Assembly (NCBI GenBank): GCA_965205945.1
Contig: CBDBIB010000001.1
Coordinates: 320,001-384,000 of the forward strand
DNA: 64,000 nucleotides
Direction of reading: 5' to 3'
Source of the DNA: Bdellovibrionales bacterium
GTDB lineage: Bacteria; Bdellovibrionota; Bdellovibrionia; Bdellovibrionales; UBA1609
The notes beneath the pieces were generated by a model. The model had not been told where the DNA came from. It did not search any database and was given only the letters and a program-made list of their open reading frames with translations. Positions 1 through 58,010 of the stretch are shown in pieces (the stretch's first letter is position 1; every line of letters starts with the position of its first letter). The position numbers were made by a program, and so were the translations under genes.

Positions 1-503
1 TTTTTATCTACTGCAGAAAAGCTTGCTTGTTCATCAATAGATAAGATACTTGCTGGCTTTGCCTGATTCACAAGGCTGTGATATTCCTCTATGGTAATCT
101 TCATATAATCAGCAACTTCATAATCCTCAGGACTTCTGCCTAACTGAGACTCTAGTTTATAAGCGGCTCTATCTAAAGCTTTCGCCTTATCTCTTATTGA
201 CCTAGGAACCCAATCTTGTGCCCTAAGCTCATCAAGAATTGAACCTCTAATTCTAAACTCTGCATAAGTTTTAAATTTATTATCTCTAGTTTGATCATAT
301 TTATCTATTGCATCCATTAGACCAATTACACCACTAGAAATTAAATCATCTAATTCAATATTTGCAGGAAGTCTCATTGAAATCTTTTGAGCTATAAACT
401 TAATAAGCGGTGCATACTCGGCTATAATTATATTTTTTTGTGCTAATGTTAAAGTTCCACCATTCTTTATTTTTAATCTCTTTATTAAAGACATTTCTGA
501 CAT
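1..503 (-). CDS. fliA: RNA polymerase sigma-28 factor (3' end outside window; not in ORF track)
   Basis: Hand translation MSEMSLIKRL...EYAPLIKFIAQKISMRLPANIELDDLISSGVIGLMDAIDKYD...FKTYAEFRIRGSILDELRAQDWVPRS. The DELRxxDWVPRS motif is diagnostic of FliA/WhiG. GTGGGG lies upstream of the ATG. Confidence 0.93.
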   Translation of the reverse strand, partial: MSEMSLIKRLKIKNGGTLTLAQKNIIIAEYAPLIKFIAQKISMRLPANIELDDLISSGVIGLMDAIDKYDQTRDNKFKTYAEFRIRGSILDELRAQDWVPRSIRDKAKALDRAAYKLESQLGRSPEDYEVADYMKITIEEYHSLVNQAKPASILSIDEQASFSAVDK

Positions 504-673
504 ATATTTTCCCCACTTCATATTAATAATATCAAACTAAATTAATTTTAAAAAAAATATGCACTTCTTTTTATAATAAAAAAATACGCTCACCTCATAA
601 ACCCCTTTAAAATCTAGATTTTCCTTTAAAACTCTAAATCGTCTAAAAGTTAATCAACTGTTGCAAATCTGTT

Positions 674-982
674 TTAAGATATTTTTTTCTCGTTCTCTGG
701 CATAAACAACCTGTCCTTATCTTCTTTTCTTTCTTTTGATAAAATCATCATCTTATAATCATCCACATCATCAAGGCCAAGAGATTGAATAAATTTTACA
801 TCCTTTTTATCTTTAAGAAACAAGAATTCATCTGATTCAATTCTAAGAGCAAAAAATTCTTTATCCTCTGCCTGCTCACGAGAAACAACATTTATTTTAA
901 TTTCTTTTTGTTTAAAAAAAGCTAAAAATAAACCTAAAAATAACACAATAGATGTACCTAAAACTGCATACATAAAAAACAT
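674..982 (-). CDS. Small membrane protein, possibly divergent FliO-like
   Basis: N-terminal TM helix followed by a beta-rich segment (IKINVVSRE...FALRIESDEFLF) resembling the FliO cytoplasmic domain. Lies between fliL-like and fliA. Confidence 0.45.
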   Translation of the reverse strand: MFFMYAVLGTSIVLFLGLFLAFFKQKEIKINVVSREQAEDKEFFALRIESDEFLFLKDKKDVKFIQSLGLDDVDDYKMMILSKERKEDKDRLFMPENEKKIS

Positions 983-983
983 A

Positions 984-1388
984 TTAAATCTCCTCTATCT
1001 TTAAAAGGTTAACTTTAATAAACTTATTTTCAGCAATAAACTCATTTAAAGACGTTAAAATATTTTTTTGAAATCTCCTCTTACCTTTTTCTGTATTAAG
1101 CTGTTTAAGATCATAGTCAGATAAAACAGATATTACTAGATTTTGAACAGCCTCTTTCTGTCCTGCCAAACTTTTCTTTAAACCATTTGCTCCTGAGTAC
1201 TTTAAACTTAACGACATTATTTTAGAACTCTCTTTATCTTGAATTTTAACTATAAAGGGTTCGGGTTTAATAACTTCAACTGGTAAAATTTCATGAGTGA
1301 AAGAAATTTTTTGTCCTTCTTTTTTTTGATTACATGAAACTCCTATGATTAAAAAAAATATAAAAATAAAATTTTTTAACATATTCAT
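984..1388 (-). CDS. fliL: FliL-like protein with lipobox-like signal (GVSC)
   Basis: C-terminal pattern VQNLVISVLSDYDLKQLNTEKGKRRFQKNILTSLNEF matches the FliL family. N-terminus is hydrophobic. Confidence 0.7.
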   Translation of the reverse strand: MNMLKNFIFIFFLIIGVSCNQKKEGQKISFTHEILPVEVIKPEPFIVKIQDKESSKIMSLSLKYSGANGLKKSLAGQKEAVQNLVISVLSDYDLKQLNTEKGKRRFQKNILTSLNEFIAENKFIKVNLLKIEEI

Positions 1389-1399
1389 GCACTTTATAA

Positions 1400-1415
1400 A
1401 GCAAGCTTAATGCCA
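1400..1415 (-). promoter_or_regulatory. Sigma-54 (-24/-12) promoter
   Basis: Minus strand TGGCAT-TAAGC-TTGCT directly upstream of the fliL-like gene. Confidence 0.7.
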
Positions 1416-2220
1416 ATAAATTATTTAAGTTTTCACAGGCCTTTTATCCTTTAAATAACTATTTCTTATATAAAAACGTGACTTTTTTACTGTCAGTTTT
1501 TCTTCTTTAAGCTCCACACTTTGTTTTTCTTTTTGACAGGACTCTACTTTAATACGACCATAGACTAATTTATCTTAAACCCTTTAAAAATAGACTCTTA
1601 AAGAATTTTAAGCTTTTACTTTAAAAAATAAATTCATTCAATGCACCTCTAAATCCAAACAAAATAAACGTAACATTTCATAAAGGAGCTCTAAACAAGA
1701 GAACTCCTAAACATGATGAATAATATATGCTTAAATCTATTCTTTATTTTAATGATTTCTTAATTAAACCCTTACTCACTAAATGACCAGCAGCTAAGTC
1801 AAAGGCCATACTTGATTTTTCACGATTTAACAAATGATCTTAAAATCACAATAAAAAAGAATGCTAAAAGCCCTCATAGTCTAAAAAAACTCCAAACCCA
1901 ATAGGATCTTTTAATCAAGGTGGTAACGAATATTAAAACCTGCCTCTCTATCTGTTAAAAGATTCAAGATATTAAAATAAGGTTACAAAAAAAGAACTCA
2001 GACGGCATATCCAAGGACGATCGCCAGACTTATACATGCCCACAAAATCCTTAAAATTCAATAGAGTGAGCAATCTTCTTAAGAGTCTTCGAACTCAAAT
2101 CTTTGTCTTAAAAAAAAATCTGCTATTAATATGTTAGCTTCAAATAGTAATATTTGTCTTAAGTAACCTAAAGTCATTTCTAAACCTTAACAGTAAAATT
2201 ATGAACTCTGCAGTCAAAAC

Positions 2221-2284
2221 TTTTTCAGCAAAATCTAATTAGGGTTACAATTTGTAAAATTAGGTTTTTTCAGCAAAAGTCTAA
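2221..2284. repeat. Imperfect direct repeat TTTTTCAGCAAAA(G)TCTAA x2
   Basis: Copies at 2221-2238 and 2266-2284. Confidence 0.5.
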
Positions 2285-2319
2285 GAGGCTAAAGTTCTAC
2301 TTGAAAAACTATAGCAAGA

Positions 2320-2442
2320 GGTAACATCAAAAACATCCCATAAACCGATGTCTTGATCAAAAGAAACTGCACCATAAAACATAAAGCTCATATCAATAAC
2401 GTTAGAGGTGTTCTAGTCAGAAGTGTCAGAGTTAAGCGATTT
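2320..2442 (-). pseudogene. DUF285/BspA-type (PARCEL) surface-repeat fragment
   Basis: Translates [40 protein letters not shown], matching the 25-aa WxTSNVTDMSxMFxGAxSFNQDI repeat. TAG replaces the Trp codon at 2413-2415. Confidence 0.8.
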
Positions 2443-2573
2443 TTACTAAAGCCTACAACTTAAGACTTAAAATGCCCGCTTTAAAAATATAAAACTGCCA
2501 AAGACTCAGTCAGTTATAAATTTTCTTAGAGTAATCAGTAGCTATCTTTTAAAAATTTTGTTAATAGGTTAGA

Positions 2574-4820
2574 ATGACTTTAGATGATCTTACTAAGGGA
2601 TTAAATCCCTCTCAAAAAAAAGCCGTCCTCTCTACAAAGCCTGCACTCATTGTGCTTGCTGGTGCAGGATCTGGAAAAACTCGTGTATTAACCAGAAGAA
2701 TCACACACCTTCTTGCTAAAGGTTTTATTTCCCCAATAGAGTTTTTAGCTGTGACCTTTACAAACAAAGCTTCTCATGAAATGAAAGACCGCATCATCAA
2801 ACTTCTTTTTAACCTAGGTTTCCCCCCTCCTCCTAAAATGTGGATCTCTACATTTCATTCAATGGGTGCAAAAATTTTGCGTGAACATATACATCTACTT
2901 AATTATCCTACCTCCTTTACAATCTATGATGGCGACGATCAGATTAAAACTATTAAAAATATTTTAAAAGAGCTTAATATTAATGATCAATCTATAAATC
3001 CTAAAACAATTCGAGAAGCTATATCAAACGCGAAAGGACAATGTATTTATTGTCATGAAACCAAAAAACTAGAAACTTTTTGGATTATAAAATTTCAAGA
3101 AATCTACGCTTTATATGAGAAAAAACTTTTTGAATCAAAGGCTCTAGATTTTTCAGACCTTCTTTTTAAAACTTATGACCTTTTGCTTTCTTATCCGGAT
3201 GTTTTAAAACCTTATCAAGACCAGTTTAAACATATTCTAGTAGATGAGTATCAAGACACAAATGCTCTTCAATATAAATTGATCAGACTTCTTGCTGGAG
3301 ATAAAAATAATATTTTTGCCGTTGGTGATGAGGATCAGTCTATTTACTCATGGCGAGGAGCAGATATTAACAATATTCAACTCATGGAAAAAGACTTTAC
3401 CGCTCATAAGATAAAACTAGAAACAAATTATCGCTCAACGAAAAATATTGTTGATGCTTCTAATGCTGTTATCCAAAATAACACCCTTAGAAATAAAAAA
3501 ATTCTTACAACTAAAAATCCCCATGGTAGTAAAATTCAAATAAATCAAGCTTTAAATGATTACGATGAAGCTAAAATTGTTGCAAAAAAAATTGAAAAAT
3601 TAATCTTTGAAGGGACAAACCCTAGTGATATTGCAATATTTTATAGACTTAACTCTCAATCAAGAGTTTTAGAGGAACAACTTCGTATGCTTTTAATTTC
3701 TTATAAAATTCTTGGAGGTCTACGCTTTTATGAAAGAAAAGAAATTAAGGATATGCTTGCTTTTATGAAGCTTGCTATAAATCCAAATGATGAAATTTCG
3801 TTGCTTAGAATTATAAATATTCCGGCCAGAGGTATTGGCAAAAAAACAATTCAAACTCTTATTGAATATGCAAAGCAAAACAATATAAATCTCTTTTCTA
3901 CCTTACAGGCTTTAAAAACAACACCTTTACTAAAACCCGGTCCAAAGAAAAAAGTTTTAAATTTTTTAAAAATATTAGAAACTTTGATTGAAATAAAAGA
4001 TAAAACAGCCACCCATGTTTATAGAGAAATTTTATATTTAACTAAATATGTTTTAAATTTAAAAGCTGAAAATAACTCTGAAGCTGATGCAAGAATTGAT
4101 AACCTTGAAGAGTTAGATAATGCTCTTTCACATTTTGAAAAAGAACGAGGAGATGAGGCTACTCTTCTTCAATTTTTAGAAGAAACTGCTCTTATATCCG
4201 ATCTAGATGGTGCTGATTTTAATGTTCCTCAAGTAACATTAATGACCCTGCATGTTTCAAAAGGCTTAGAGTTTGAAAATGTATTTATTGTTGGCCTTGA
4301 AGAGGGTCTACTCCCTTGCGTTCACGGTGACGAAATAAATCAAGACCTTATGGCTGTTGAAGAAGAGCGACGCTTAATGTATGTTGGGATGACACGAACA
4401 AAAAAAAAGCTTCACCTCTCATTTGCTAAATCCAGAAAAGTTTGGGGTCAAGAACAGTTCTATCAACAAAGCCGATTTATCAATGAAATTCCTGATGATT
4501 ATGTAGATAAAAAACTACTCTTCTTACCAAATACTTTTAGCAATAAGTCACAGTCTTTAAAATATAATAACTTTTATGACCTTAAACAAACTGTTAGTAA
4601 CGACCCTTTACCTGACCATGACAGCAATTTTGATAATGAGTTCTTTGATGAGAACGACACTGGCCTTAAAAAAGGAAATAAAGTACGACACCCTATTTTT
4701 GGTACAGGGTCAGTTTTAGAAATCGAAGGCTTTGGAGAACTTATGAAGGTTAAAATTGTATTTTCTGACCGTTCAGTTAAAAAATTTGTAGCTAAATATG
4801 CACGCTTAAAAAGAATCTAA
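2574..4820 (+). CDS. pcrA: UvrD/PcrA family ATP-dependent DNA helicase
   Basis: AGAGSGKT, VTFTNKA, STFHS, VDEYQD, VGDEDQSIYSWRGA, KGLEF, EERRLMYVGMTR, and a C-terminal Tudor-like domain (VRHPIFGTG). Confidence 0.96.
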   Translation: MTLDDLTKGLNPSQKKAVLSTKPALIVLAGAGSGKTRVLTRRITHLLAKGFISPIEFLAVTFTNKASHEMKDRIIKLLFNLGFPPPPKMWISTFHSMGAKILREHIHLLNYPTSFTIYDGDDQIKTIKNILKELNINDQSINPKTIREAISNAKGQCIYCHETKKLETFWIIKFQEIYALYEKKLFESKALDFSDLLFKTYDLLLSYPDVLKPYQDQFKHILVDEYQDTNALQYKLIRLLAGDKNNIFAVGDEDQSIYSWRGADINNIQLMEKDFTAHKIKLETNYRSTKNIVDASNAVIQNNTLRNKKILTTKNPHGSKIQINQALNDYDEAKIVAKKIEKLIFEGTNPSDIAIFYRLNSQSRVLEEQLRMLLISYKILGGLRFYERKEIKDMLAFMKLAINPNDEISLLRIINIPARGIGKKTIQTLIEYAKQNNINLFSTLQALKTTPLLKPGPKKKVLNFLKILETLIEIKDKTATHVYREILYLTKYVLNLKAENNSEADARIDNLEELDNALSHFEKERGDEATLLQFLEETALISDLDGADFNVPQVTLMTLHVSKGLEFENVFIVGLEEGLLPCVHGDEINQDLMAVEEERRLMYVGMTRTKKKLHLSFAKSRKVWGQEQFYQQSRFINEIPDDYVDKKLLFLPNTFSNKSQSLKYNNFYDLKQTVSNDPLPDHDSNFDNEFFDENDTGLKKGNKVRHPIFGTGSVLEIEGFGELMKVKIVFSDRSVKKFVAKYARLKRI

Positions 4821-57994: not shown

Positions 57995-58010
57995 TGGCAT
58001 AAGCCTTGCT
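57995..58010 (+). promoter_or_regulatory. Sigma-54 (-24/-12) promoter
   Basis: TGGCAT-AAGCC-TTGCT about 100 nt upstream of the S8 peptidase. Confidence 0.7.

Follow-up and report, generated by a model that had tools for sequence, protein, structure and literature searches.

Why would a bacterium without a flagellum keep a flagellar sigma factor, together with what looks like the opening of a flagellar operon? The question is raised by a locus at one edge of a 64,000-nt stretch of DNA, hereafter the window, from a Bdellovibrionales bacterium (GCA_965205945.1, contig CBDBIB010000001.1, positions 320,001 to 384,000, forward strand). The genome from which the window comes (G000) comprises 1,869,826 bp in 5 contigs, with 32.5% GC, an estimated completeness of 97.34% and an estimated contamination of 0.08%. 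On the minus strand, in 5'-to-3' order, the locus consists of a sigma-54 box, the gene for a FliL homologue, a 102-aa open reading frame (ORF), a 152-nt spacer and fliA, the gene for sigma-28. Our reading, to which we assign a probability of about 0.78, is that these genes are what remains of the class II flagellar operon after flagellum loss in a Bdellovibrionaceae lineage, and that the remnant still serves as an RpoN-to-FliA relay.

A short operon ending in fliA

An earlier, sequence-only reading of this DNA had described a promoter followed by only two short membrane genes and fliA, and this layout is borne out on the minus strand of positions 1-1415. One point of order is made explicit here: as the coordinates given in that reading imply, the FliL homologue is promoter-proximal and the FliO-like gene comes second. 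The features of the locus are as follows (L and G numbers denote related loci and genomes).

1528-1542, minus strand: upstream element GTCCTGTCAAAAAGA, ~123 nt upstream of the sigma-54 box; candidate activator site
1477-1496, minus strand: second conserved block CTGACAGTAAAAAAGTCACG; its TGACAG half-site is the complement of the CTGTCA upstream
1393-1595, minus strand: conserved regulatory region upstream of the FliL gene, from blastn against L007 and G029
1401-1415, minus strand: sigma-54 (-24/-12) promoter TGGCATTAAGCTTGC, from the consensus pattern and its conservation in relatives
984-1388, minus strand: FliL homologue, 134 aa, from Pfam PF03748 and the predicted fold
674-982, minus strand: 102-aa single-pass membrane protein, probably a much-diverged minimal FliO, from profile-profile comparison and position
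522-673, minus strand: conserved spacer between the 102-aa gene and fliA, from alignment with L007, G029 and L008
3-521, minus strand: 5' part of fliA (sigma-28), the gene running 282 nt past the window start

The complete fliA gene (G000:C1:319718-320521; L001 17718-18521) encodes 267 aa and matches the FliA_WhiG model TIGR02479 with 271.9 bits over model positions 1-224 (cut-off 189.6). Its likely start codon is the second ATG, at 503, which is preceded by GGGGA and corresponds to the start of the L007 orthologue. The 102-aa ORF begins 1 nt after the stop codon of the FliL homologue, with GAGGAG nine bases upstream of its own start. No terminator was predicted in the 152-nt spacer. In an alignment with L007, G029 and L008 its mean column identity is 71%, with TTGCAAC and TTTGATA as invariant blocks, and an internal promoter, an operator or another control element for fliA may lie within it. 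Upstream of the FliL gene, no ORF of at least 40 aa was found within 1389-2573 of the window, and the first ORF beyond the promoter is a divergent uvrD/pcrA-like gene at 2574.

The genome encodes no flagellum

We searched whole genomes in six frames for flagellar families at E<=0.001, a procedure that was positive in 4 of 4 flagellated control genomes. G000 returned 0 matches for FlhA, the flagellin N-terminal domain, FliP, FliF, the rod/hook N-terminal domain, the FliM/N C-terminal domain and the FliG C-terminal domain. A tblastn search of G000 with FliO, FliP, FliQ, FliR, FlhB and FlhA of a Bdellovibrio bacteriovorus locus likewise found nothing, and FlhF and FlhG recovered only signal recognition particle-type and ParA/MinD-type relatives. 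A complete flagellar gene set elsewhere in the genome was looked for and not found, and the sequence-only proposal of a non-flagellated lineage agrees with the absence of seven core flagellar families at 97.34% completeness.

Related loci retain different subsets of the operon

To place the short operon in context, we compared gene order across the 80 best FliA-anchored loci on contigs drawn from one genome per species. Their titles name Bdellovibrionales, Bdellovibrionota or Bdellovibrio, with the exception of one metagenome-assembled genome (MAG) labelled Streptomyces griseus. FlhA is encoded upstream of fliA in 69 of the 80 loci. Wherever a locus with FlhA is long enough, the order is fliO-fliP-fliR-flhB-flhA-flhF-flhG-fliA, and fliA closes a fliO-fliP-fliQ-fliR-flhB-flhA-flhF-flhG-fliA block in relatives. 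Specifically, the closed, flagellated genome G026 carries FliL (3,093,028), FlhA (3,098,980) and FliA (3,103,444) on one strand within 10.4 kb. Both results agree with the ancestral order given in the sequence-only reading, in which the full operon would have run fliL-fliM-fliN-fliO-fliP-fliQ-fliR-flhB-flhA-flhF-flhG-fliA. Four loci were too short to judge, and 7 of the 80 have no FlhA despite ~8 kb of upstream sequence:

L057: fliL (75.1 bits)-fliM-fliN-flhF-flhG-fliA, the FlhF being a short FlhF-like GTPase
L063: fliO-flhF-flhG-fliA, with a FliO-domain protein of 328 aa (49.4 bits)
L067 (a 1.82-Mb chromosome): fliL (60.5 bits)-fliO-fliA, with a FliO-domain protein of 401 aa (43.9 bits) directly before fliA
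L045: a weak fliL-like gene (19.8 bits), two unrecognised ORFs and fliA
L008: a fliL-like gene (lipoprotein-like ORF), TM103, ORF235 and fliA
L009: a lipoprotein-like ORF, one or two further ORFs and fliA
L007: arranged like the window

The deletion that had been proposed from the window is therefore seen in a wider setting, the seven loci and the window all being without FlhA and holding different operon subsets. Because the seven loci are collapsed to different degrees, the short operon appears to be derived by internal deletions. These would have taken the switch, export-gate and placement genes and spared both ends: at the 5' end the ancestral sigma-54 promoter, the upstream element and fliL, and at the 3' end fliA. 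In L008 (7104-7811), L009 (6876-7829) and L120 (2028-2966; genome G019), the small genes are separated from fliA by ORFs of 235-317 aa. These may be FlhF remnants without the GTPase domain, their N-termini being FlhF-like by eye with no Pfam match.

The comparison also bears on whether flagellar genes are present in the organism and absent from the assembly, or the short operon is mis-assembled. G000 is in 5 contigs and its completeness is an estimate, which leaves some room for this explanation. Against it, seven independent flagellar families are all missing at 97.34% completeness, the same collapsed arrangement is found in the separately assembled L007, G029 and G051 (the genome of locus L008), and related short arrangements are found in the single-contig FlhA-less genomes of the family sample described below (G017, G044, G037, G059, G045 and G006). 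Two sequencing runs contain 97% of the sampled words of window positions 1-3000, although these perhaps represent the source sample and are not independent. We regard an assembly artifact as close to refuted.

The family sample comprises 61 genomes, the window's genome included. FlhA is present in 38 and absent from 23, and the FlhA-less genomes are mostly 1.2-2.4 Mb in size. FliA scores above its cut-off in 58 of the 61 genomes and in 21 of the 23 without FlhA, the two exceptions being 80% and 58% complete. Flagellated genomes of the family usually have three FliL matches, as published (PMC11323537). At a Pfam threshold of E<=0.01, FliL matches were found in 14 of the 23 FlhA-less genomes; in 11 of these a single match shares the strand of fliA and lies at most 0.6 kb upstream of it, and another 2 have it within 4 kb. 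Pfam misses FliL in some orthologues (L008 and L009). Indeed, G051 has a lipoprotein-like small ORF at the fliL position that is related to the window FliL by tblastn (29% identity, E 7e-7), and thus Pfam undercounts FliL at least once. G019 and G022 also have a small ORF at this position, for which we do not assert homology to FliL.

In a FliA tree, the window groups with L007 and L008 (support 99) and then with L009 (94). The tree was too weakly resolved to support a count of independent losses, and the long branches of L045, L063 and L067 are unsurely placed.

The sigma-54 promoter and its upstream element predate flagellum loss

The pattern TGGCAY-N5-TTGC has 2 matches in the 64-kb window, compared to 0.10 expected from 100 shuffles. 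The match before the FliL gene, TGGCATTAAGCTTGC, meets the sigma-54 consensus (GG-N10-GC; TGGCAC-N5-TTGC), and its first T lies 27 nt ahead of the ATG at 1388. The box is conserved in at least 14 related loci. The distance from the box to the start codon is 27-28 nt in the window, L007, L008, L009, L045 and G029 and 33 nt in L067, and it is longer in L063. The box also precedes fliL in the flagellated genomes G026, G032 and G027, and in G006 it is found immediately before fliA.

Conservation extends beyond the box. A shared upstream element, GTCCTGTCAAA, is found in flagellated and flagellum-less relatives. Its core is (G)TCCTGTCAA followed by an A/T run. This core stands 115-137 nt upstream of the sigma-54 box in flagellated G026, G032 and G027 as well as in the window, G029, L007, L067, G022, G051 and others. 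A TGTCA/TGACA half-site falls between -101 and -137 in 13 of 16 loci. We considered a palindromic TGTCA-N6-TGACA as the general upstream element and rejected it, as it is found in only 3 of the 16 loci; the common element is a single GTCCTGTCAA block. The further block CTGACAGTAAAAAAGTCACG is present at offset -80/-81 only in the window, G029 and L007. Over the ~200 nt upstream of the FliL gene, blastn identity is 77.5% to L007 and 79.8% to G029, whereas the rest of the 1.2-kb gap cannot be aligned and the flanking genes are close to saturated at synonymous sites (proportion of synonymous differences, 0.5-0.67). The element at 1528-1542 is a candidate site for the sigma-54 activator. The conservation of the -24/-12 box and GTCCTGTCAA in flagellated and flagellum-less loci alike indicates that the promoter is ancestral.

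The genome has the proteins that such a promoter calls for. Sigma54_DBD matches of 214.9 and 190.4 bits show that rpoN is present, and there are 8 strong Sigma54_activat matches, corresponding to 7 intact genes and 1 with an internal stop. With the box and upstream element conserved, the RpoN-to-FliA wiring that the sequence-only reading had supposed appears to be kept. Judged from the spacing, transcription starting ~12 nt after the GC would land on the ATG and give a leaderless mRNA, in keeping with the many sigma-28-type -10 boxes of G000 that are followed by a start codon after 1-15 nt.

Several further observations concern sigma-54 in this genome. The second Sigma54_DBD match (G000:C4:3403-3870) lies on a 4.3-kb contig in a 295-aa open frame and may be a duplicate rpoN or an assembly fragment. 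An enhancer-binding protein gene with an in-frame TAA is found at G000:C3:505,945-506,448. G000 has 16 sigma-54 boxes of this kind in total, mostly before lipoprotein-like or secreted-looking ORFs. One of them, TGGCATTAAGCTTGCT at G000:C1:292,915 (minus strand), has 16-nt identity to the fliL box and lies ~28 nt before the ATG of a lipoprotein-like ORF (259 aa), which follows closely on an enhancer-binding protein gene (L097); the regions upstream of these two boxes are otherwise unrelated. The second box of the window (57995-58009, plus strand) is followed after 118 nt by an ORF of 550 aa whose start resembles a signal peptide.

A predicted sigma-28 regulon persists

The window FliA is 91% identical to that of L007, 75% to L008, 70% to L009 and 65% to B. 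bacteriovorus FliA. Its ratio of nonsynonymous to synonymous substitution rates (dN/dS) relative to L007 is 0.04, compared to 0.06 for the neighbouring UvrD. Of 140 attack-phase promoters mapped in B. bacteriovorus, 92 have TTAAG-N16-CCGATA, and it was proposed that FliA regulates the attack phase globally (PMC3627812). The fliA gene of that organism resisted deletion, and FliA drives the TAD pilus operon (PMC5430801).

We therefore looked for sites of this type in G000. The pattern T[TA]AAG-N15-17-CCGATA occurs 11 times, compared to 3.3 +/- 1.7 in ten second-order Markov simulations. When one mismatch was allowed in the -35 element, 13 of 49 sites were located at most 30 nt before an ORF of at least 60 aa; with 40 permuted -10 hexamers, a mean of 2.1 of 89.5 sites did so (maximum, 11). 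We then scanned the 17 ORFs of at least 100 aa found downstream among 20 sigma-28-like sites with a nearby ORF. They include genes for two S8 subtilases, a T2SSE ATPase, a T2SSF protein (Tad type) and RelA/SpoT, FtsH, TonB-like and SelO-like proteins, and 9 of the 17 have no Pfam match at E<=1e-5. Because sigma-28-type sites are enriched and placed before genes, sigma-28 still appears to have a regulon in G000. This predicted regulon is of the kind described for attack phase, with the role of FliA here read across from its promoter sites.

These findings answer the first half of our question. By analogy, retention of fliA is to be expected, since sigma-28 in this family drives the attack-phase programme and is essential in B. 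bacteriovorus. The sequence-only reading had overlooked that fliA retention is expected from this role. The promoter and the rest of the operon can then be understood together: as fliA is kept by an essential role of sigma-28, the operon would still work as an RpoN-to-FliA relay.

Two side observations concern sigma-28. At G000:C1:397,929-398,051 (L139 1459-1680, minus strand), a 73-aa FlgM-like ORF scores 24.4 bits on PF04316 (cut-off, 25). An NfeD-like/SPFH-like pair precedes it and a CsrA-like ORF of 79 aa follows directly (names given by eye), and 5 other FlhA-less genomes also gave weak FlgM matches. With no export apparatus, an anti-sigma-28 factor would have to be released by some other route. 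At 12 of the 20 listed sigma-28-like sites the start codon lies 1-15 nt past the -10 box, and leaderless mRNAs may be common in G000.

The promoter-proximal gene encodes a FliL homologue

The 134-aa protein matches PF03748 over residues 43-122 with 36.3 bits (cut-off, 24.6), and it is the sole Pfam FliL match in G000. An AlphaFold2 model built from 11 homologues has a mean predicted local distance difference test (pLDDT) score of 80.5, with 10-residue blocks from residue 41 averaging at least 90. The ten best PDB matches to the model are all FliL chains (7SGN, 9HMF_O, 6AHP and 6AHQ), with E values of 1.2e-6 to 2.9e-5 and template modelling (TM) scores to the target of 0.68-0.83; Helicobacter pylori 7SGN gave E 1.2e-6 and TM 0.75-0.81. 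Stomatin and HflK/C rank after the FliL chains. The FliL call of the sequence-only reading thus held up on both counts, with Pfam above cut-off and a predicted fold that matches solved FliL structures, and we consider the homology firm. The protein is a FliL homologue and not a functional flagellar FliL, as G000 has no flagellar structural genes.

Its N-terminus also departs from that of the usual FliL. The hydrophobic segment ends in G-V-S-C and resembles a lipoprotein signal, with Cys19 as its last residue. The alignment shows the cysteine in 8 of 11 homologues; in L045, L057 and L067 it is missing and the helix is the longer, usual one. From these features, the window protein looks to be anchored like a lipoprotein instead of by the usual membrane helix.

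We considered a stator-type partner as the general reason for FliL retention. On the minus strand, G000:C1:570,000-571,600 (L092 594-2781) encodes a 212-aa lipoprotein-like ORF, a MotA/PomA-like protein (266 aa) and a MotB-like protein of 251 aa with an OmpA-like end. The best NCBIfam matches of the MotA/PomA-like protein are flagellar stator models, all below cut-off. Orthologues of the MotA/MotB-like pair, at 62-85% identity, were found only in genera g1 and g20. Genera g3, g18 and g19 retain FliL with no MotA-type match to the G000 query, and thus a stator-bound role cannot be general. With no co-occurrence across genera, this candidate was rejected.

The second gene is probably derived from fliO

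The origin of the 102-aa protein (TM102) is harder to establish. It has no Pfam or NCBIfam match at E<=1, and its L007 and L008 orthologues have no match to PF04347 at E<=1, whereas the genuine FliO proteins of related Bdellovibrionales score 43.9-58.5 bits on that model. The family is small, with 4 clusters at 90% identity among 5.8 billion (its own included) and 8 representatives at E<=1e-10 among 1.84 billion. Common to its members are a helix at the N-terminus, the conserved block KEFFALRIESDDFLFLK, a run of acidic residues, cytoplasmic positions that do not vary and, at the C-terminus, an EK(K)AS motif. Two long proteins (P0013 and P0014; E ~1e-6 over several short stretches) are among the 10 matches of the TM102 profile.

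Profile-profile comparison nevertheless gives moderate support to FliO. With hhalign, a 14-member TM102 family aligned to 33 Bdellovibrionales FliO proteins with a probability of 72.7% (P 3.2e-5), and to a second FliO alignment with 79.0% (P 1.6e-5). The match spans the helix-proximal core. A reversed FliO alignment gave 10.6%, and FliP, FliQ, FliR, FlhB, FlhA, FlhF, FlhG and FliA gave 0.1-3.8%. The TM102 model (pLDDT 61.9) has a helix at residues 2-27 and strands at 30-38, 41-48, 51-57 and 62-68 (pLDDT ~56-67), and the FliO core is known to consist of a membrane-spanning helix plus a small beta-sheet in the cytoplasm (PMC12248157). The gene position of the 102-aa ORF is held by a Pfam-positive FliO in L067. 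ESM Atlas scores for TM102 were only 0.78-0.80, with FliO named for 14% of the members of one cluster, and these are leads and not evidence.

On this evidence, the 102-aa gene is probably of fliO origin. Another source, either an unrelated small membrane protein present by chance or the remnant of another operon gene, is the less probable but still a serious alternative. In its favor are the missing Pfam/NCBIfam match in the face of the 44-58 bits of genuine FliO, the dependence of the hhalign probability on the sampling (29.8% with six TM102 sequences, 72.7-79.0% with 14), and the result that individual FliO proteins match the TM102 profile weakly (L063, 34.9%) or not at all (L067, 0.7%), with Atlas scores that remain leads. 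However, of the nine operon-encoded families only FliO stands out (79.0% versus at most 3.8%), the match covers the equivalent membrane-proximal core with a low-confidence predicted architecture that is that of the FliO core (PMC12248157), and a Pfam-positive FliO occupies this gene position in both L067 and L063. The sequence-only reading had itself called its FliO assignment weak; topology, position and profile probability now speak for the assignment, and the Pfam result does not.

The FliO-domain proteins of L063 (4955-5941), L067 (6429-7634) and L045 (6853-7707) carry a 200-260-aa N-terminal extension with a signal-peptide-like start, in which Pfam AMIN has no match at E<=0.1. AMIN-FliO fusions have been reported in Bdellovibrionota (PMC12248157).

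Both small genes are under selection

Relative to L007, dN/dS is 0.19 for the FliL homologue and 0.31 for TM102, with the reservation that dS of 0.85-1.7 is near saturation and the values are accordingly rough. The frames are open in all homologues recovered (14 of the TM102 family and 8 close FliL-like sequences). From these data, both small genes encode proteins under purifying selection, which is relaxed compared to that on fliA, and the genes are dispensable in some lineages. Purifying selection on both genes implies that they do something.

The competing view is that the two genes are functionless leftovers, retained because their deletion would take the promoter or translation signals of fliA with it. 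They evolve 5-8 times faster than FliA at nonsynonymous sites (dN 0.26 versus 0.05), and one or both are gone from several lineages: in g3, g18 and g19 the FliL match is 86-229 nt from the FliA match with no ORF called between them, and in G006 the sigma-54 box directly precedes fliA. FliL has also drifted beyond Pfam detection in L008 and L009. In contrast, leftovers would not be expected to have dN/dS values of 0.19 and 0.31 at dS of at least 0.85, reading frames intact in all 14 TM102-family and 8 FliL-like sequences, a FliL domain that is predicted to fold (pLDDT >90), or the invariant cytoplasmic residues and conserved EK(K)AS motif of the TM102 family. We consider the leftover view improbable and retain the reading in which both genes are functional parts of the remnant operon.

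A model for the relay and its significance

In the model that we favor, an enhancer-binding activator, presumed from the promoter type, binds the upstream element and opens the -24/-12 promoter. A probably leaderless transcript would start from or beside the fliL ATG and continue through the 102-aa gene, most likely that of a stripped-down FliO, into fliA, the start and the co-transcription being suggested by the layout. FliA would then read sigma-28 promoters elsewhere in the genome. In this family sigma-28 would drive, besides flagellar genes where these exist, the programme of the non-replicating attack phase, which includes surface proteins, proteases and Tad pili.

Several results weigh against this reading or parts of it. 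No activator can be assigned, as none of the 7 enhancer-binding proteins scores above a model cut-off in NCBIfam. The L007 FliL orthologue apparently starts with GTG, which is awkward for a leaderless mRNA. If fliA has its own promoter in the conserved spacer, transcription from the sigma-54 promoter might be confined to the two small genes. Nine FlhA-less genomes have no Pfam FliL match, and the FliA tree infers 4 collapse changes, of which well-supported branches force only 1. The FliO assignment suffers from the lack of any domain match, the 29.8% obtained with six sequences and a best profile-profile probability under the level usually taken as proof, and the estimates of selection from dS near saturation. 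The conserved promoter and upstream element, the derived gene order and the predicted sigma-28 regulon lead us to maintain the relay at the probability given above.

The sequence-only reading had proposed that FliL and FliO serve something else, such as surface or prey sensing, and none of our tests lends support to this. What the two small proteins do invites a bolder suggestion. The FliL-like lipoprotein and the FliO-derived protein could form a flagellum-independent envelope-to-sigma-28 switch that senses the state of the envelope or contact and tunes FliA. Such a switch would agree with the published shift of B. bacteriovorus to host-independent growth when one fliL paralogue is lost (PMC11323537), and also with the persistence of FliL beside fliA in at least five genera that have no flagellum, of which three have no MotA-type match. 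We regard the switch as speculative and improbable.

In full-text literature searches, supplements excluded, we found no account of a collapsed fliL-fliO-fliA operon and none of FliA/FliL retention in flagellum-less Bdellovibrionales. New here are the FliL homologue and the probable FliO remnant, both under selection, and the intact sigma-54 control region. The locus illustrates the shrinking of a large flagellar operon whose final gene is indispensable after the flagellum has gone: its two ends, with the promoter and with fliA, survive, and steps in between can still be seen in related genomes. By comparison across genomes it also lends independent support to the view that in the Bdellovibrio group sigma-28 regulates the life cycle and not flagella alone. 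Such genomes also offer natural "minimal" backgrounds for motor-independent roles of FliL and of the FliO-like protein, a question that B. bacteriovorus genetics recently raised for FliL.

The region beyond the control elements

Window positions 1596-2573 form ~1 kb of AT-rich DNA (GC is 29% over 1389-2573) with no ORF of at least 40 aa and no similarity to relatives. A SPOR-domain gene occupies this position in L007, L009, L045 and L063. A tblastn search for a remnant of that gene in the 1.2-kb gap gave no meaningful match (best E 4.0).

Comparison with known systems

Flagellum loss in reduced Bdellovibrionota and the occurrence of FliO in some non-flagellated organisms are already known (PMC9944714; PMC12248157). 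The former study describes reduced Bdellovibrionota MAGs from a glass sponge, 1.2-1.7 Mb in size with a GC content of 32-35%, that have no flagellum, chemotaxis or type IV pilus genes. These genomes resemble G000 (1.87 Mb, 32.5% GC) in being small, of low GC, from the Bdellovibrio group and without flagellar genes; the text of that report, in the part accessible, makes no mention of fliA, fliL or operon remains. The latter study describes FliO in a five-gene operon of Chlamydiia and as singletons in some Rhizobiales, and these, as is probable for the 102-aa protein, are FliO-type proteins without FliP, FliQ and FliR (PMC12248157). Unlike the 102-aa protein, those homologues are recognised by FliO models; the 102-aa gene differs in turn by lying still inside the remnant of its own operon, beside fliL and fliA.

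The FliL proteins of stator rings (H. pylori 7SGN, Vibrio 6AHP/6AHQ and Campylobacter jejuni 9HMF) have the same periplasmic SPFH-like fold and belong to the same Pfam family as the window protein, but they act at a rotor, which the window's genome does not have.

Chlamydial sigma-28 and Streptomyces WhiG are FliA-family sigma factors that serve a developmental programme in cells without flagella, as we propose here for FliA. Neither lineage is known to keep a piece of a flagellar operon, a sigma-54 promoter or an adjoining FliL gene.

A close known system is also that of B. bacteriovorus. Several differences set the window apart: the ten genes between fliL and fliA are cut to one small gene, and its genome has no flagellar targets for FliA, with the FliL anchor now lipoprotein-like. 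In other respects the two agree. The class II operon of B. bacteriovorus, from the same organism family, ends in fliA (bd3318) with the same order of end genes, it shares the sigma-54 box and upstream element before fliL, and its FliA has the same sigma-28 consensus before protease and Tad-type genes.

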